Positions 50 to 17,308 are shown, counted from the first letter of the stretch. The stretch is DNA of 17,358 nt from a virus (UHGV-0105864), one strand, 5' to 3'. Numbers and translations: made by a program. Notes: generated by a model from the letters alone, not told the origin.

Positions 50-1228
50 ATGGCTATAAGCGACACAAAACTGCGTAGTATTTATGGTAAACCATATTCG
101 GGCCCACAAGAAGTGGCTGATGCCGATGGCCTCAGCGTACGAATTTCACCGAAGGGGGTCATCCAGTTCCAGTACCGCTATCGCTGGCATGGCAAGCCTA
201 ATCGACTTGGGCTTGGTCGATACCCATCCCTGTCTTTGAAGGATGCCAGACAGATCACTGCTGACTTGCGAAAGCTCTATTTCTCAGGAACGGATCCACG
301 CACTTATTTTGAAGAGAAGGTGGAGAACTCCATGACGGTCGCCCAGTGTCTCGACTACTGGTTCGACAACTACGTCTCTACAACTCTCAGAGAAAAGACC
401 CAGGCACTTTACCGATCAACGGTTATGAAGCGCATGCATGACGCCTTTCCTAATCGTCCGGCATCTTCTATCACGGTTAAGCAATGGGTTGACCTGCTTA
501 CCGAAGAAGAAAGAGATAATCCACGCCGAGCAAGGCAGGTGCTAAGTCAACTAAGATCAGCAATAAGTTGGTGCATGCGGCGTCAGTTGATAGATAGTTG
601 CGCAATTATGAGCATCCAACCAAGGGACTTCGGCTCCCGCGCTGAGGTAGGGGATCGGGTACTGTCGTATCACGAACTGGCTAAGATTTGGCTTGCTATT
701 GAAAGAAGCCGTGCGTCTACGTCAAATAAGCTACTTCATCAGATGCTTATGCTGTGGGGGGCGAGGCTCTCAGAGCTTAGGCTGGCAAAAAAGACAGAAT
801 TTGACCTGCTGGAAAACGTATGGACCGTACCGAAAGAGCATAGCAAGATGGGTAATGTTATCCGCCGTCCAATCTTCGAACAAATTAAGCCTTTCCTCGA
901 AAAGGCCATGACAACGTACAATGATGTTCTTTTCCCTGGAGAAGACATAAACAAACCGATCAGCATCGCTGCAGCCAACCGATTCGTAAATAGAATAAGG
1001 GGAGGGATGGATCTAGGTTACTGGCGAACACACGATTTCAGAAGAACGCTTGTTACACGTCTGTCCGAGATGAATGTCGAGCCTCATGTTACTGAGCGAA
1101 TGCTCGGTCATGAACTTGGCGGGATAATGTCCGTGTACAATAAACACGACTGGATAGAGGCTCAGCGCAAAGCGTATGAGCTTCACGCTGATAAATTGTT
1201 CTGGCACATCAGGAGCATTTCTGATTAA
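50..1228 (+). CDS. int: Phage integrase, tyrosine recombinase (P4-type)
   Basis: 392-aa ORF; N-terminal region and C-terminal catalytic region (HDFRRT, HELGG, final Y) resemble P4-family integrases; sits at the prophage end next to an excisionase. Confidence 0.9.
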   Translation: MAISDTKLRSIYGKPYSGPQEVADADGLSVRISPKGVIQFQYRYRWHGKPNRLGLGRYPSLSLKDARQITADLRKLYFSGTDPRTYFEEKVENSMTVAQCLDYWFDNYVSTTLREKTQALYRSTVMKRMHDAFPNRPASSITVKQWVDLLTEEERDNPRRARQVLSQLRSAISWCMRRQLIDSCAIMSIQPRDFGSRAEVGDRVLSYHELAKIWLAIERSRASTSNKLLHQMLMLWGARLSELRLAKKTEFDLLENVWTVPKEHSKMGNVIRRPIFEQIKPFLEKAMTTYNDVLFPGEDINKPISIAAANRFVNRIRGGMDLGYWRTHDFRRTLVTRLSEMNVEPHVTERMLGHELGGIMSVYNKHDWIEAQRKAYELHADKLFWHIRSISD

Positions 1229-1665: not shown

Positions 1666-1946
1666 TTCGCATTCGTTCAAATTGCGTTTACTTCTTGGCG
1701 TTCTGTTCATCCATATCGATATACCATGGGTTGCTTCCCTTGGGCATGTTTAACGACTGCTCGCGATAGTATCTGATGCGCTCCATGAAATACTCGCGTG
1801 AGTGCTCAGGTTGCTCTCATGATACCTGCTCAGTGATAACAGGTATGTTAAGGCGCTCTCTGTACTCCATGCCTGATGCTGCAAGGTCAACGTTTACCTT
1901 GTTCTGTTTTTCTTTCGATTTCTCGGCGATGTTATGCCTGGCATTG

Positions 1947-2189
1947 TCAACCCGCCTCCTTCTGAACATAACGGTTATAAATCAGTCCCTGAGGGCCACA
2001 AGGAAGCTGGATGTGCAACTCCTCTGGTTCAGAAACTATCCATTCTCCGGCCATCTCCGCTGGAGAGGTAATGATAAGTTGTTTGCTAATAAAAGGACCA
2101 CTCCTCTCAACAACAAGCTTACCATCTTCATTAATAAAAGCTTGGATGTCAGGTGTGCTTCCACACTTGGTGATGCAGCGTTTGAACAT
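1947..2189 (-). CDS. Hypothetical protein (80 aa from ATG 2189; track frame extends to 2231)
   Basis: Open frame 1947-2231; G-rich ribosome-binding site (GGGGGG) 7-9 nt upstream of ATG 2189; start choice is uncertain. Confidence 0.4.
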   Translation of the reverse strand: MFKRCITKCGSTPDIQAFINEDGKLVVERSGPFISKQLIITSPAEMAGEWIVSEPEELHIQLPCGPQGLIYNRYVQKEAG

Positions 2190-2214
2190 TTTGTGTCCCC
2201 CCATTTTATGGACG

Positions 2215-2227
2215 GGGTAATTATAAC
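2215..2227 (-). promoter_or_regulatory. Candidate extended -10 promoter (TGTTATAAT) on the - strand upstream of the 1947-2189 ORF
   Basis: Complement of 2219-2227 reads TGTTATAAT; no strong -35; AT-rich intergenic region 2232-2315. Confidence 0.3.
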
Positions 2228-2315
2228 ACATTGAAATATAGTAATATTTGACGTAGATTTCTTTTGATCTATAAGCGATTTTTTAATGCTTTTAAGTTAT
2301 AAATACTTGTTTTCA

Positions 2316-4189: not shown

Positions 4190-4672
4190 TTATTTGATAA
4201 GAAGTGAAGGTTTCCCAACTTTGAGTTTAGCGCCGGGAATATTTATTCCTGCTTTTAGTTGGTGTTTGATTGCCAGTTTGTCGGCTTTAATTGTCGTTTC
4301 AAACTCAACGTATTCAGGAGGAAGGGCGCTTGAGTCGATTATTTCTACAATTTCTGACGGTTTGCGGATTGTTACCTGGTGAATACCTGCTCGAATATTT
4401 TTCTTGCCAGCCATTTCAAGCGATGACGCTATATATGATTTGATGCTGTCAATCTTATTTTGAATTACTGCAGCTCGCTCATTCAGTGACTTTGCCTCTT
4501 CCTTGAGGCGTTCGGCATAACCAGATTCATTTTTAATGACGGAAAGAAGTTGCTCTATTTTATCGGTAAATTCTCCTTCCATGCCTTCTATTGTGTCAGC
4601 AATCATCTCTGGTTCTAAATCTGAATCCATCAATTTTGCGTATTCATTGGCAATTTCATACAGTTTGCTCAC
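4190..4672 (-). CDS. Gp157-like protein (siphovirus Gp157 family, tentative), RecT-associated
   Basis: About 160 aa, immediately downstream of recT with overlap; likely GTG start at 4672 with GGAGG 6 nt upstream (track TTG at 4678 is too close to the ribosome-binding site); family assignment is from recall. Confidence 0.55.
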   Translation of the reverse strand: MSKLYEIANEYAKLMDSDLEPEMIADTIEGMEGEFTDKIEQLLSVIKNESGYAERLKEEAKSLNERAAVIQNKIDSIKSYIASSLEMAGKKNIRAGIHQVTIRKPSEIVEIIDSSALPPEYVEFETTIKADKLAIKHQLKAGINIPGAKLKVGKPSLLIK

Positions 4673-5567
4673 TGGCAACCTCCAGTTTCGCTTTGCATTC
4701 TGCGTAAATGGCTTGTACGTTCTGCTGCAATTTCATCCCAGATGTCAGGCGATATGCTTCTGCAAAATATCGCTTCAAATCATCCATGTTTTCAGCCTGA
4801 GCCATTTCATCACAAAGAAGTTGTGCTTTATCCGTTATTTCCTGCTGGCGTTTCCGTTCATCTTCGCGGATATCTTCCTCTGATTTGTGCGGCATAACTG
4901 GTTCAGTCCACACACCTTCTTCTTCGTTTAGTACGTGAATAGCACTATCAAGACGTGATGCCTTAGGCCAATACTTGCTTGCACGCTTTACGACCGTCTT
5001 TCGCGCCATCTCATTCCAGTGATTTACCCATGGTCCTTTATCGCTGAATGCTGCCTTGCTTGTTTTCCTTACAGCCTCAATTTCAGCCAGACTCATCTCT
5101 TCCGTTAGATAATCACCTGCTGGCGTCTTAACTGTGCAGTAAACGCCAACAATATCACCACGATCACCGAAGGCGTTGTATTTATGGGTTGGTGCTTTAT
5201 CAAGCCCGTTTGACTCATAGGTATCGTTAGCATGAACAAGTTTTGCCTGACCCCATGAGATAACACCAGACTCCATTGCAATATGGAGCAATCCCATATA
5301 ACTGATATCAAGGCACACCATGCCGTCGCGCGGAACCAGATAAGCCAGTTTGCTAGCCGGGTTTAAGGTGATACCGATCGCCGCAACATTGATGATGGCG
5401 TTCTGTGCGCTGGTTGGATTTGCCAGTGCTGTTTTAGCCAGGTAATCATTTTTCTGGAAATACTGAATTGCAAACTGGCTTTCCTTAGCCCATGTCACCG
5501 TCTGTTCAGTCAATGCTCCGCAGAATAACTGCTCTTGCTGTTTAACGAATTCAACGATATTGCTCAT
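4656..5567 (-). CDS. recT: RecT-family single-strand annealing recombinase
   Basis: 303-aa ORF; GPWVNHWNEMARKTVVKRASKYWP matches the conserved RecT region; GGAG ribosome-binding site; start overlaps upstream stop. Confidence 0.85.
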   Translation of the reverse strand: MSNIVEFVKQQEQLFCGALTEQTVTWAKESQFAIQYFQKNDYLAKTALANPTSAQNAIINVAAIGITLNPASKLAYLVPRDGMVCLDISYMGLLHIAMESGVISWGQAKLVHANDTYESNGLDKAPTHKYNAFGDRGDIVGVYCTVKTPAGDYLTEEMSLAEIEAVRKTSKAAFSDKGPWVNHWNEMARKTVVKRASKYWPKASRLDSAIHVLNEEEGVWTEPVMPHKSEEDIREDERKRQQEITDKAQLLCDEMAQAENMDDLKRYFAEAYRLTSGMKLQQNVQAIYAECKAKLEVASEQTV

Positions 5568-6209: not shown

Positions 6210-6458
6210 CTACTCTATTTCTTCTTCGAATGATTTTATTAGTCGGTCAATAACATCATCCGTTTCAATATCATTTCCGTCTGATTGCTTTAATACATCT
6301 ATTGATTCTGCAGCGGTAAATTCCATCGCTGTGAGAAACTCGACAATTGCACACTCAACGACATATCGTTCTTCATCTGTACGACATGAGATAAAAGAGC
6401 ATTTAATTGCTGTTATTACTTTTTGTTTAAGCTCTGCAGGGTAATCAGTTTTTATCAT
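6210..6458 (-). CDS. Hypothetical acidic protein (82 aa)
   Basis: ORF with GGAG 6 nt upstream of ATG 6458, immediately after a terminator hairpin. Confidence 0.55.
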   Translation of the reverse strand: MIKTDYPAELKQKVITAIKCSFISCRTDEERYVVECAIVEFLTAMEFTAAESIDVLKQSDGNDIETDDVIDRLIKSFEEEIE

Positions 6459-6615: not shown

Positions 6616-6643
6616 CCAAAAATAAAGGCCGACTATGAGGCCT
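6616..6643 (-). terminator. Intrinsic terminator (AGGCC-loop-GGCCT then UUUAUUUUUGG) on the - strand, at the end of the 6633-7256 gene
   Basis: Hairpin 6626-6643 overlapping the stop codon; T-rich run on the - strand (complement of 6616-6626). Confidence 0.55.
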
Positions 6644-7256
6644 CGGAAGGAAGTCCAATCATCTTATTCAAATCTTCTACCCGTAAAGCAGGAAGTGCTG
6701 TACTTGCTTTATCTGCTTCTTTTGGTAGCAACTCTTTGCTTTCAGGCCAAACCTCAATAAGTCGCTTAACTGTTGTGACTGAGTTTAAAGCAGCCCATAC
6801 ATTTGATTCGATATCCTTTTTCTTTGCTTCAAGTTTTTGTTGTAATGAGCAGATTTCATCAAACCTTTTTGTTATTTCGTGCTCTGCGTCAAACATGCAT
6901 TTATCTTTTATCGGAGTAGGGAGAAATATATCTTCGCCGTTGCCGTCTTTCCCATATGAATGCCATCCAACCCTTCTGCCAGATACAGTCAGATAAATTG
7001 AAGTAGAACGAAAATCGTATGAGTAAAATGAACATCCCATCTTTCCAAGTTCTTCACTTATAGCTACCAACTTGGATGATAACTGATCCACTTCCTCAGT
7101 TTTCTTTTTACCGCCAAACGCAATAACTCTGGCGTCAAGTGCAAGCTGGTTCTTTAACTTTGTTACTTCTTCAAGCTCAGTGAAAACCCCAGACTTAATT
7201 AAAGCGTTACGAGCGATTTCCTCTTTCATTCTCGTAGTTAAGCGGATTGATGACAT
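6633..7256 (-). CDS. Hypothetical protein (207 aa from ATG 7256), terminator-flanked moron-like gene at the lambda sieB/ea10 position
   Basis: Long ORF; GAGAGG ribosome-binding site 8 nt upstream of ATG 7256 (track start at 7271 is a TTG); hydrophilic with coiled-coil-like stretches; no recognised domain. Confidence 0.65.
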   Translation of the reverse strand: MSSIRLTTRMKEEIARNALIKSGVFTELEEVTKLKNQLALDARVIAFGGKKKTEEVDQLSSKLVAISEELGKMGCSFYSYDFRSTSIYLTVSGRRVGWHSYGKDGNGEDIFLPTPIKDKCMFDAEHEITKRFDEICSLQQKLEAKKKDIESNVWAALNSVTTVKRLIEVWPESKELLPKEADKASTALPALRVEDLNKMIGLPSEAS

Positions 7257-7269
7257 ATTAATTCCTCTC

Positions 7270-15363: not shown

Positions 15364-15548
15364 ACGCCACAATTCAAACGATACCAGAGCTTCTTATCCA
15401 GACACGAGGCAATCAGACCGAAGTGGCAAGGATGCTTTCCTGCGCAAGAGGAACAGTGCTCAAGTACAACCGAGACAGCAAAGGCGAGCGTCACGTAATA
15501 GTTAACGGCGTCCTGATGGTCAAACAGGGAAAGAGGGGAAGACGATGA
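15360..15548 (+). CDS. ninH: NinH-like DNA-binding protein
   Basis: 62-aa ORF; TIPELLIQTRGNQTEVARMLSCARGTVLKY resembles lambda NinH (KTIPDMLVEAYGNQTEVARRLKCSRGTVRKY). Confidence 0.7.
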   Translation: MNATIQTIPELLIQTRGNQTEVARMLSCARGTVLKYNRDSKGERHVIVNGVLMVKQGKRGRR

Positions 15549-16063
15549 GCATAAGAGAACTAAACCTCACCAAAGAACAGCATGAGTGGCTGAATGGCTG
15601 GCTTGAACTGTGGGGCGCATGGGTTTATTCAGGTCGTCTGGAAAAGCGCATGAGCAGCGTAATAGCGAAGTTCATGGAGAGCGTAGAGCCGGGAAGAGTT
15701 ATGACAAGGCCAATGTGCAATGATGATGATGGAATGTTGATTTCTCAGGTCGTCGATTCCGTCATGTGCATTGACAAGAAAGCCTTTGGCATCCTCCTCA
15801 GCTACTACGCTCATGGTTCATCTAAGCGAGCAATTGCATCCTACTATCACGCGACTGCAAAGCCACGCAAGATGTGTGGACGTGGTGGCGAGGGATGGAG
15901 AAAACCTTCACTGGCAACCTGTAGAAACGAAATTGACGACATCCTGAAAGCGTCGTTATTTGTTTTGTACCAGCCAATGCAAAATGCTTTTAAAATGCGT
16001 AAACGTGTTGAGAAAGTTAAGCATGTTGCTGTTAAAAGCCTTGACATGCAATTATCCATTTAG
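15545..16063 (+). CDS. Q: Putative late-gene antiterminator Q (not lambda-Q type)
   Basis: 172-aa ORF in the Q position (after ninH, immediately before a pR'-like promoter, terminator, tRNAs and S/R); the sequence itself was not recognised, so the call is positional. Confidence 0.5.
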   Translation: MSIRELNLTKEQHEWLNGWLELWGAWVYSGRLEKRMSSVIAKFMESVEPGRVMTRPMCNDDDGMLISQVVDSVMCIDKKAFGILLSYYAHGSSKRAIASYYHATAKPRKMCGRGGEGWRKPSLATCRNEIDDILKASLFVLYQPMQNAFKMRKRVEKVKHVAVKSLDMQLSI

Positions 16064-16070
16064 CCATAAT
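16041..16070 (+). promoter_or_regulatory. Candidate late promoter pR' (-35 TTGACA 16041-16046, 18-bp spacer, -10 CATAAT 16065-16070)
   Basis: Consensus -35 hexamer inside the 3' end of the Q-position gene; -10 just after its stop codon. Confidence 0.5.
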
Positions 16071-16080
16071 TAGAAGGTAA

Positions 16081-16123
16081 GCTGCCGTTAGTGACTCTTA
16101 AGTTGCAACGGTGGCTTTTTTTA
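16081..16123 (+). terminator. Intrinsic terminator (hairpin 16081-16115 then a run of 7-8 T), candidate tR'
   Basis: Imperfect stem GCTGCCGTT...AACGGTGGC followed by TTTTTTTAT, immediately downstream of the pR' candidate. Confidence 0.55.
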
Positions 16124-16126
16124 TTT

Positions 16127-16201
16127 GGGTCAGTCGTATAAAGGTCATTACGGAAGGCTGTTAACCTTCTTATCGTGGTTCGAGCCCACGCTGTCCCGCC
16201 A
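16127..16201 (+). tRNA. Phage-encoded tRNA, anticodon GUU by manual fold (tRNA-Asn-like), with acceptor and D-stem mismatches
   Basis: Cloverleaf read by hand: acceptor GGGTCAG/CTGTCCC (one U-U mismatch), anticodon stem GAAGG/CCTTC with loop CTGTTAA, T-arm CGTGG-TTCGAGC-CCACG, 3' G-CCA encoded. Confidence 0.55.
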
Positions 16202-16206
16202 AACAT

Positions 16207-16282
16207 GCTGGTTTAGCTCCAATGGTAGAGCAGTCGCCTTGTAAGCGAATGGGTAGCGGTTCAAGTCCGTTAACCAGCACCA
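16207..16282 (+). tRNA. Phage-encoded tRNA, anticodon UGU by manual fold (tRNA-Thr-like)
   Basis: Acceptor GCTGGTT/AACCAGC, D-stem GCTC/GAGC, anticodon loop CTTGTAA, T-arm AGCGG-TTCAAGT-CCGTT (one G-U pair), discriminator A plus CCA encoded. Confidence 0.6.
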
Positions 16283-16371
16283 TAACTGAGCCGTATCCAC
16301 TGGCTATCCTGAATTCATCAGTGATAGTTATGCTGCGGCCTTCTACACATGATCTTCGTGAAAGCGGGTGA

Positions 16372-16405
16372 CAGGAGGTCGCGCTAACAACCTCCTGCCG
16401 TTTTG
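16372..16405 (+). terminator. Stem-loop (CAGGAGGT-N10-ACCTCCTG) with a short T-run, in the lambda-like region upstream of S
   Basis: 8-bp perfect stem followed by CCGTTTTG; terminator-like but with only four T. Confidence 0.35.
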
Positions 16406-16504
16406 CCCGTGCATATCGGTCACGAACAAACCTGATTACTAAACACAGTAGCCTGGATTTGTTCTATCAGTAATCGACCTTATTCCTAATTAAATAGAGC
16501 AAAT

Positions 16505-16518
16505 CCCCTTATTGGGGG
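16505..16518 (+). promoter_or_regulatory. Stem-loop immediately upstream of S (CCCC-TTATT-GGGG), the known translational control structure for the S dual start
   Basis: Inverted repeat overlapping the ribosome-binding site GGGGGTAAGAC before the Met1/Met3 starts of S. Confidence 0.5.
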
Positions 16519-16524
16519 TAAGAC

Positions 16525-16848
16525 ATGAAGATGCCAGAAAAACATGACCTGTTAGCCGCCATTCTCGCGGCAAAGGAACAAGGCATCGGGGCAATCCTTG
16601 CGTTTGCAATGGCGTACCTTCGCGGCAGATATAATGGCGGTGCGTTTACAAAAACAGTAATCGACGCAACGATGTGCGCCATTATCGCCTGGTTCATTCG
16701 TGACCTTCTCGACTTCGCCGGACTAAGTAGCAATCTCGCTTATATAACAAGCGTGTTCATCGGCTACATCGGTACTGACTCGATTGGTTCGCTTATCAAA
16801 CGCTTCGCTGCTAAAAAAGCCGGAGTAGAAGATGGTGGAAATCAATAA
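16525..16848 (+). CDS. S: Holin S (lambda S107/S105 dual-start holin/antiholin)
   Basis: 107-aa [44 protein letters not shown]... essentially identical to lambda S. Confidence 0.95.
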
Positions 16849-17308
16849 TCAACGTAAGGCGTTCCTCGATATGCTGGCGTGGTCGGAGGGAACTGATAAC
16901 GGACGGCAGAAAACCAGAAATCATGGTTATGACGTCATTGTAGGCGGAGAGCTATTCACTGATTACTCCGATCACCCTCGCAAACTTGTCACGCTAAACC
17001 CCAAACTCAAATCAACAGCCGCCGGGCGCTACCAGCTTCTTTCCCGTTGGTGGGATGCCTATCGTAAGCAGCTTGGCCTGAAAGACTTCTCTCCGAAAAG
17101 CCAGGACGCTGTGGCATTGCAACAGATTAAAGAGCGTGGCGCTTTACCGATGATTGACCGCGGTGATATTCGTCAGGCAATCGACCGTTGCAGCAATATC
17201 TGGGCTTCGTTGCCCGGGGCTGGTTATGGTCAGTTCGAGCATAAGGCTGACAGTTTGATTGCAAAATTCAAAGAGGCTGGCGGAACGGTCAGAGAGATTG
17301 AGGTATGA
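16832..17308 (+). CDS. R: Endolysin R (lambda lytic transglycosylase)
   Basis: 158-aa [45 protein letters not shown]... matching lambda R; overlaps the S 3' end. Confidence 0.95.

Follow-up and report, generated by a model that had tools for sequence, protein, structure and literature searches.

A tRNA-Asn/tRNA-Thr cassette of the phage 21/Sf6 type in the late-operon leader of a P22-like E. coli prophage

The viral DNA analysed in this paper (UHGV-0105864), hereafter the window, is a stretch of 17,358 bp in which ARAGORN finds exactly two tRNA genes, both on the plus strand. Both are real and intact genes of the phage, one for tRNA-Asn(GUU) and the other for tRNA-Thr(UGU), and the cassette they form is already known, being a one-base variant of the tRNA-Asn/tRNA-Thr pair of phages 21 and Sf6. 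The pair probably acts as two functional elongator tRNAs in the leader of a lambdoid late operon, with tRNA-Thr serving chiefly as a nuclease-resistant replacement for tRNA-ThrU and tRNA-Asn in a parallel role. The coordinates of the cassette and its neighbours are given in Table 1.

Table 1. Features in and around the late-operon leader (positions in the window)
Feature	Position	Strand	Description and support
Late antiterminator Q (phage 21 / Sf6 gp59 family)	15545..16063	+	PHROG 943 'anti-termination protein Q-like', E = 3.6e-93
Late promoter pR'	16041..16070	+	TTGACA, 18-nt spacer, CATAAT; sigma-70, 11/12 matches (promoter scan)
tR' leader terminator	16079..16126	+	hairpin 16079-16117, U-tract 16116-16126, directly before tRNA-Asn
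tRNA-Asn(GUU)	16127-16201	+	75 nt, CCA encoded; ARAGORN, Rfam RF00005
tRNA-Thr(UGU)	16207-16282	+	76 nt, CCA encoded; ARAGORN, Rfam RF00005
Untranslated lambda-homologous leader upstream of S	16283..16524	+	~240 nt
Lysis gene S, lambda-type	16525-16848	+	PHROG 126 holin/anti-holin, E = 1e-40
Lysis gene R	16832-17308	+	

Both genes match Rfam family RF00005 over their full length, tRNA-Asn with 53.0 bits (E = 4e-9) and tRNA-Thr with 61.5 bits (E = 1.9e-11) against a gathering score of 29, and a permissive Rfam scan of positions 15900-16600 returned no family besides the two tRNAs. ARAGORN supports both cloverleaves and, in agreement with Rfam, assigns the anticodons GUU and UGU that the original prediction had called. 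Stems of 7, 4, 5 and 5 bp, an anticodon loop of 7 nt, U33, a purine at position 37 and the T-loop sequence GTTCRA are found in both, as expected of elongator tRNAs. In tRNA-Asn, the anticodon G34-U35-U36, discriminator G73, GTTCGA T-loop, G18G19 and CCA end are intact, U8 and A14 are also present, and the anticodon stem forms the full 5 bp (G27-C43, A28-U42, A29-U41, G30-C40, G31-C39). The tRNA-Thr retains G1-C72, C2-G71, G35, U36 and A73; its anticodon stem reads G27-U-C-G-C31 / G39-C-G-A-A43, in which U28-A42 and C31-G39 are paired. The AsnRS identity set of E. coli consists of G34-U35-U36 with discriminator G73, and the ThrRS set consists of G1-C72, C2-G71, G35 and U36. Judged by sequence, each window tRNA carries the complete set for its own synthetase.

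Departures from canonical pairing occur in both genes. In tRNA-Asn the NC line of cmscan marks one acceptor-stem pair, U4·U69, and one D-stem pair, U13·U22, so the U-U mismatches reported earlier in these two stems are real; in tRNA-Thr it marks G27·A43, the topmost pair of the anticodon stem. Of the conserved positions U8, A14, G18 and G19, tRNA-Thr departs at position 14, where it has C instead of the near-universal A14; C14 is present in the phage-21-type Thr alleles, with U14 in a few. Both G27·A43 and C14 had been overlooked in the earlier reading. The C14-bearing tRNA-Thr21 of phage 21, which has the same sequence as the window tRNA-Thr, is functional in vivo (PMC12445682).

The surroundings of the cassette are those of a lambdoid late operon, and its placement between a pR'-like promoter/terminator and a lambda-type S gene, as claimed at the outset, was borne out by promoter scanning, folding and PHROG assignment. 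The window Q shares ~88% nucleotide identity with phage 21 Q, and the Sf6 record lists its homologue as antiterminator of the late operon. The promoter overlaps the 3' end of Q at the position of the Sf6-annotated P_R'; its spacer, which holds the Q-binding element, differs from that of phage 21, and identity to phage 21 starts only at the terminator. The tR' hairpin has a dG of approximately -20 to -21.5 kcal/mol (z = -4.72), a stability that none of 200 shuffled sequences reached, and its sequence is identical both to the phage 21 terminator annotated in OL657228 and to Sf6 t_R'. It was found by folding; an internal mismatch, and a stem-loop that does not fit the scanner's pattern, kept it from being picked up by a consensus terminator scanner. 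Downstream, homology to lambda (97.6%) begins at window position 16280, equivalent to lambda 44942 and lying inside the CCA of tRNA-Thr, and the leader contains a second terminator-like hairpin at ~16371-16396 (-19.7 kcal/mol) followed by CCGUUUUG. Between the tR' terminator and S there is no ORF of more than 50 aa, so no toxin gene follows the tRNAs, which agrees with the original prediction. After the tRNAs, the late operon continues with S and R (16525..17308) as its first protein-coding genes; their Sf6 homologues are annotated S107/S105 and R. The rest of the window comprises the integrase, early-left, immunity, replication and nin regions of a P22-like E. coli prophage, whose closest relatives are Kapi1, Gally and CUS-3. 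A search for repeats around the cassette yielded only short repeats at chance level.

In Stx-phage 933W, a tRNA cluster lies in the late leader, 3' of the Q-controlled terminator and before stx, and its tRNAs are ileZ, argN and argO, reading the rare AUA and AGA/AGG codons. The window shares this tRNA position in the late leader with 933W, so that the analogy drawn in the original prediction is fair as regards position, but differs in the tRNA species and in having no toxin gene after them, and it is thus not a Stx-phage tRNA-toxin leader, in which tRNAs are followed by stxAB.

The cassette belongs to the phage 21/Sf6 late-leader type by its position, gene order, 5-nt spacer and near-identity in sequence, a long-annotated unit that the earlier reading did not recognise. 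Two phage 21 references were used, the old fragment AJ237660 and the corrected complete genome OL657228. The latter has the same arrangement at 39591-39746, with pR', tR', tRNA-Asn, the 5-nt spacer and tRNA-Thr followed by lysis genes, and the Asn and Thr genes with their spacer are identical to it at 155 of 156 nt. The tRNA-Thr is 100% identical to phage 21 (OL657228 39671-39746), as is the terminator, and the tRNA-Asn differs from those of phage 21 and Sf6 by one base, C for T at 16185, T-loop position 60; this C variant also occurs in 9 viral contigs. The two phages differ in other respects. The promoter spacer and the C-terminus of Q are of the Sf6 type in the window, not of the 21 type; lambda-type S/R follow the tRNAs in place of the S21 pinholin and SAR endolysin of phage 21; and the window phage is P22-like (Kapi1/CUS-3-like), whereas phage 21 is a lambda-like siphovirus. 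In Sf6 (tRNAs at AF547987 36065-36220), P_R', qut, t_R', tRNA-Asn, tRNA-Thr and then S107/S105 occur in the same order, and the single T-loop substitution is the only difference in tRNA-Asn. The Sf6 record annotates P_R', qut, t_R' and both tRNAs, with the remark 'similar to phage 21'. The phage L genome paper likewise notes that some P22-like phages have tRNAs at this spot, for example Asn/Thr in Sf6, and calls their mode of expression unknown.

This type of cassette is widespread. Window positions 16000-16520 are 97.5-98.5% identical to Sf6 (97.5% over 521 nt), BTP1, SPN9CC, CurroJimenez_Bas106 and others, 178 phage records being matched. Of 5,426 complete E. coli genomes, at least 294 contain 80% or more of the module; among the E. 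coli matches listed, PGAP annotates tRNA-Asn/tRNA-Thr in 15 of 15. The frequency of the cassette among complete E. coli genomes is thus ~5%, and many phages of Salmonella, Shigella and Klebsiella also have it. Scanning IMG/VR for a 31-nt pattern of the Asn gene gave 120 viral loci, from which the Asn alleles were taken. The layout is Asn-Thr in 96 of them, with a spacer of 5 nt in 95 of these 96, and the remaining layouts are Asn-Phe-Thr with or without Arg and Gly, Asn-Gly, and Asn alone. The combination of Asn(GUU) and Thr(UGU) is kept in 107 of the 120 loci, and three viral loci have a Thr(UGU) gene of another lineage in the same slot. As a discovery the pair carries little weight, given that the genes are annotated in Sf6, phage 21 and the listed E. 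coli matches and that the anti-OLD function of the Thr gene was published in 2025.

That function concerns P2-OLD, the effector of classic P2-lambda interference, whose lethal effect is due to cleavage of host tRNA-ThrU(UGU) (Govande et al. 2025, PMC12445682). The cut sites are paired CNG motifs at 28-30 and 40-42 in the anticodon stem, and phage tRNA-Thr(UGU) genes, tRNA-Thr21 of phage 21 among them, rescue cells from the nuclease (PMC12445682). Resistance consists of altered CNG motifs together with a shortened anticodon stem; in tRNA-Thr21 these are C28U/G42A and the shorter stem, and a change of motif alone is insufficient in the tRNA-ThrU background (PMC12445682). The same tRNA, whose rescue was shown from a plasmid, resists cleavage by P2-OLD and restores ACA decoding in vivo (PMC12445682). 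Identity of the window tRNA-Thr to the tested tRNA-Thr21 was established through the GenBank sequence of phage 21 and the features given in that paper; the Thr mechanism has therefore already been published for an identical sequence. The stem of host thrU reads A27-C-U-G-A31 / U39-C-A-G-U43. Where thrU has the CNG motif CUG/CAG, the window has UCG/CGA, and the top pair A27-U43 is replaced by G27·A43. In total, 8 of the 10 anticodon-stem positions depart from thrU, and all 7 positions of the anticodon loop agree with it. With its UGU anticodon, altered paired CNG motif and stem shortened at 27-43, the window gene has all the features of a P2-OLD-resistant tRNA. The mismatch that corresponds to the published function is G27·A43 of tRNA-Thr, which was absent from the earlier reading.

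For tRNA-Asn, the comparison is less complete. The CNG motif is lost on both strands (AAG/CUU in the window versus CGG/CCG in host asnT), and the stem remains a full 5 bp with G27-C43, so that one of the two OLD-resistance features is present and the other is not. Also, 7 of 16 Asn alleles, mostly of the Klebsiella type, keep C28-G42 and hence an intact CNG motif. A second nuclease, AriB of the PARIS system, is relevant to both tRNAs. Changes at 39, 41 and 16 block AriB cleavage of tRNA-Lys, and T5 versions of three tRNAs jointly neutralise PARIS (Belukhina et al. 2025). At these positions the window has G39, G41 and A16 in tRNA-Thr and C39, U41 and A16 in tRNA-Asn, where the host counterparts have U39, A41 or C41, and U16. 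With the anticodon of the target and substitutions at the U36-A-A-U39-C40|N41 cleavage site and at U16, both window tRNAs would be predicted to evade AriB. Of the three main tRNAs that PARIS AriB targets, two have a counterpart in the cassette. It is therefore plausible, as far as the sequence can indicate, that tRNA-Asn acts against nucleases. HepS is only loosely relevant, as it targets mainly tRNA-Thr(GGU), in the anticodon loop (PMC13043305).

Comparable tRNA pairs are seen in other phages. [quoted passage not shown] The Thr genes are ~80% alike, and the Asn genes show no recognisable relationship. Unlike the window Thr, those of P1 and Cyrano retain the CNG motifs, the full 5-bp anticodon stem and A14, and their pairs sit outside a late leader. 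The P1 tRNA-Asn keeps U39, which counts against the anti-nuclease reading. The recurrence of the Asn-Thr pair in P1 and Cyrano, together with the replacement of the Thr lineage in the three viral loci, points to selection for the anticodon pair itself. T5 has the same Thr and Asn anticodons, and at the AriB cut site it departs from the host, as the window does, at positions 39 and 41: for Thr and Asn, respectively, the site is UAAGCG and UAACCU in the window, UAAGCA and UAAGUU in T5, and UAAUCA and UAAUCC in the host. The T5 tRNA sequences themselves are unrelated to those of the window, which lacks tRNA-Lys(UUU), the prime AriB target, and the window phage is temperate with 2 tRNAs, whereas T5 is lytic with ~24.

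The original prediction had added that the first tRNA might be degenerate. A decaying pseudo-tRNA-Asn, kept only through linkage to tRNA-Thr and the terminator, would account for the two U·U mismatches in its stems, for an identity of just 55% to host asnT and for extra lesions in a few of the viral-contig Asn alleles. Alignments of 16 distinct Asn alleles from the 120 viral contigs and of 22 Thr alleles, those of P1 and Cyrano among the latter, argue otherwise. Positions 13·22 are unpaired in 16/16 Asn alleles and 4·69 in 14/16, while six other pairs, including 5-68, 6-67, 7-66, 28-42 and 29-41 and thus pairs flanking the mismatches, have changed on both sides and still pair; all anticodon-stem cells (100%) are paired, and 0 of 500 shuffles match the observed covariation score. 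The Thr alleles also contain six covarying pairs, with a covariation score reached in 0 of 500 shuffles; pairs 1-72 and 2-71 are invariant across the 22, and G27·A43 is unpaired in all 20 alleles of the phage-21 type. Because U4·U69, U13·U22 and G27·A43 are kept across alleles, they are conserved features and not decay. Moreover, a single Asn allele prevails at 85 of the 120 viral loci, the Rfam score is far over the gathering score, and the anticodon, G73, T-loop, G18G19 and CCA end are all intact. On conservation and covariation a degenerate tRNA-Asn was rejected, and decay is hardly credible as an explanation. It is also very improbable that the tRNA-shaped elements act mainly as RNA-processing modules, with RNase P sites that detach the leader, or as recombination modules at a mosaic junction, and not as decoders. 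This would suit the start of lambda homology in the tRNA-Thr CCA end, the variety of neighbours of the cassette, which follows at least three different terminators and precedes several different regions, and the Thr gene of one viral contig, the 3' two-thirds of which are identical to host thrU. It would not explain the strict conservation of anticodons and synthetase identity elements, the persistence of Thr(UGU) specificity even where the gene lineage has been replaced, or the ACA decoding restored in vivo by tRNA-Thr21.

A purely translational role, in which the tRNAs solely raise the supply of decoders and have no part in evading defence, was weighed through codon usage, with a 50-kb sample of E. 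coli K-12 as the baseline. ACA occurs at 16.6 per 1000 codons in the Sf6 late genes and 13.3 in the window ORFs, compared to 5.4 in the E. coli sample, which corresponds to an odds ratio of 2.5-3.1 (p < 1e-6) in phage genes. As ACA is 2.5-3 fold commoner in phage than in host genes, tRNA-Thr would also relieve a bottleneck in supply, and for Thr, codon supply plausibly matters; the host has a single thrU gene. Supplementation is also proposed in the phage L paper, where AAC is said to account for 24 of the 25 Asn codons of the capsid gene. The Asn codons, however, are barely enriched in the phage genes (odds ratio 1.07-1.28), so that of the codon bias looked for in the original prediction the ACA part held and the Asn part largely did not. 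Enrichment is much stronger for AGA, AGG, AUA and CGA (3.4- to 11-fold), none of which has a tRNA in the cassette. With Asn barely enriched and these four codons unserved, supplementation alone does not explain the pair, and codon supply as the only function was rejected as insufficient for Asn. Host tRNA-Asn is moreover multi-copy in E. coli, which adds to the case against it. Supplementation alone would also leave unexplained why the divergence of tRNA-Thr from the host is focused on the stem, at 8/10 positions versus 0/7 in the loop, and why OLD resistance has been shown for the identical tRNA. Overall, this reading is unlikely. The heavy use of ACA also leaves the phage vulnerable to the loss of thrU.

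The reading preferred here, with tRNA-Thr chiefly as a resistant replacement for tRNA-ThrU, implies the following course of expression, in which transcription, processing and charging are deduced by analogy with phage 21, for which a transcription start, a pause element and a terminator are annotated. Transcription from pR' would be constitutive and would stop at tR' unless Q modifies RNA polymerase. The read-through RNA would contain tRNA-Asn, the 5-nt spacer, tRNA-Thr, the lambda-type leader, S/R/Rz and the rest of the late operon, and RNase P with 3' trimming would release mature tRNAs ending in the encoded CCA. Host AsnRS and ThrRS would be expected to charge them because the identity elements are retained, and the charged tRNAs would decode AAY and ACA when the late proteins are made. 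Selection would favour tRNA-Thr(UGU) mainly as a nuclease-resistant stand-in for the single-copy host tRNA-ThrU, which is cut in the anticodon stem by P2-OLD and also by PARIS AriB; the phage tRNA would be protected by the loss of the paired CNG motif (C28U/G42A) and by the shortening of the stem through G27·A43. The tRNA-Asn(GUU) most likely has a parallel role against anticodon-stem nucleases of the Toprim type, with host tRNA-Asn as a secondary target. Regarding expression, a paper on the transcriptome of a BTP1 lysogen treats 'two tRNA genes' separately in its list of highly expressed prophage genes and has the lytic operon begin immediately behind them, which hints at some tRNA expression in lysogenic cultures.

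A more specific proposal is that the Asn-Thr cassette is devoted to counteracting, with its two tRNAs, the Toprim anticodon-stem nucleases (P2-OLD and PARIS AriB types) of competing P2/P4-like elements. Here tRNA-Asn would be resistant to cleavage like tRNA-Thr21, the conserved oddities would be determinants of evasion and not defects that are tolerated, and the recurrence in P1 and Cyrano would reflect convergent selection. This is offered tentatively, as a possibility that is rather doubtful in its full form. The oddities meant are U4·U69, U13·U22, A16 and the A28-U42/G31-C39 stem of tRNA-Asn, and C14, A16 and G27·A43 of tRNA-Thr. The cassette is in any case a worked example of non-canonical pairs that can be mistaken for decay and are conserved, at least one of which, G27·A43 of tRNA-Thr, is a published determinant of resistance. 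Should tRNA-Asn prove nuclease-resistant as well, a very common prophage cassette would constitute a broad module against Toprim nucleases, which would bear on the competition of lambdoid phages with P2/P4 elements.

Several observations relate to the trigger of OLD. Neither a lambda Gam nor a P22 Abc2 homologue is encoded in the window. The protein at 4190-4678, to which PHROG gives the label 'Mu Gam-like', was considered and set aside, as it corresponds to Pfam Sipho_Gp157 and not to lambda Gam or P22 Abc2; a link of the window phage to RecBCD inhibition and the triggering of OLD is therefore not claimed. Phage 21 encodes Gam, the OLD trigger, and ral, which speaks for the preferred reading. 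Timing is a caveat to a defence against OLD: OLD is triggered early, whereas the tRNAs are products of the late operon, and Q itself has one ACA codon.

The cassette, which in the window consists of tRNA-Asn(GUU) followed by tRNA-Thr(UGU), was found to be modular when other loci were considered, including the comparison loci L006 (601-920) and L007 (601-838) and further viral loci from IMG/VR. In some of these loci, tRNA-Phe(GAA) is inserted between the Asn and Thr genes, and tRNA-Arg(UCU) and/or tRNA-Gly(UCC) can be found 3' of Thr. Additionally, 7 IMG/VR loci carry Asn-Gly without Thr. In the phage L / ST64T / PS3 group, represented by L005, the second slot is filled by a tRNA-like gene of 72 nt (688-759), which has its acceptor and D arms in common with Thr and a rewritten anticodon arm. 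This gene is labelled tRNA-Leu(UAA) in GenBank and was not called by ARAGORN on L005; possibly, the tRNA is degenerate or of an unusual type.

The ends of the cassette fall at mosaic junctions, as seen in the window and in the upstream flanks of the IMG/VR loci. Homology to lambda starts at window position 16280, within the CCA of tRNA-Thr. Upstream of the cassette, at least 3 different terminators are present among the IMG/VR loci, all of them ending ...TTTTTTATTT immediately 5' of tRNA-Asn. Compared to phage 21 (L134), identity in the promoter region of the window begins only at the terminator. The promoter spacer (window 16047-16064) is wholly different from that of phage 21 (L134 39512-39528), where the Q-binding element (QBE) of phage 21 is located, even though Q of the window belongs to the 21 family. 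The unlike spacer implies that the Q/QBE specificity of the window would differ from that of phage 21. A different Q/QBE specificity was also proposed for phage L in its genome paper.

Adjacent tRNA-Asn(GUU)-tRNA-Thr(UGU) genes, separated by 2 nt, also exist in P1 (L009 1425-1578) and in the 108-kb phage Cyrano (L008 2473-2625). The Asn gene of these 2 phages is unrelated to the lambdoid Asn gene, and in their Thr genes both the full anticodon stem and the CNG motifs are retained. A chimeric tRNA-Thr(UGU) was observed in the IMG/VR contig L118 (approximately 1359-1434), within an Asn-Thr-Gly(UCC) module. Sequence comparison indicates that this gene is of the phage 21 type at positions 1-25 and identical to E. 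coli thrU from position 26 to its end. The chimera looks like the product of gene conversion by the host thrU, and the part derived from thrU would bring back a nuclease-sensitive anticodon arm.

Other genes of the window are listed in the table below. PARIS senses triggers of the anti-restriction protein class. Sites beside int and between N and cI are typical positions for morons, and each holds an ORF oriented against the early-left operon. No match to Pfam or PADLOC was found for either ORF. The ORF beside int also had no PHROGs match, and the sole PHROGs match of the other covers 20 residues, in a family of unknown function. In the recombination module, the protein with the PHROGs label 'Mu Gam-like end protection' is Sipho_Gp157 according to Pfam. 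No homologue of lambda Gam or P22 Abc2 was found within the window, whereas gam is present in phage 21 and abc2 in Sf6. Moreover, int of both Sf6 and phage 21 is co-oriented with the early-left genes, while the window int is opposite to them.

Early-left, recombination and integrase genes and possible morons of the window
Feature	Position	Strand	Location
Integrase gene	50-1228	+	opposite to early-left operon
152-aa ORF	1776-2234	+	adjoins int
RecT and PHROGs 'Mu Gam-like end protection' protein (recombination module)	4190-5567	-	
PHROG 14587 'anti-restriction protein' (restriction evasion)	6210-6458	-	early-left operon
Nmad5 (nucleotide-modification-associated) protein	6633-7271	-	early-left operon
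ral (restriction evasion)	7293-7493	-	early-left operon
138-aa ORF	7857-8273	+	between N and cI
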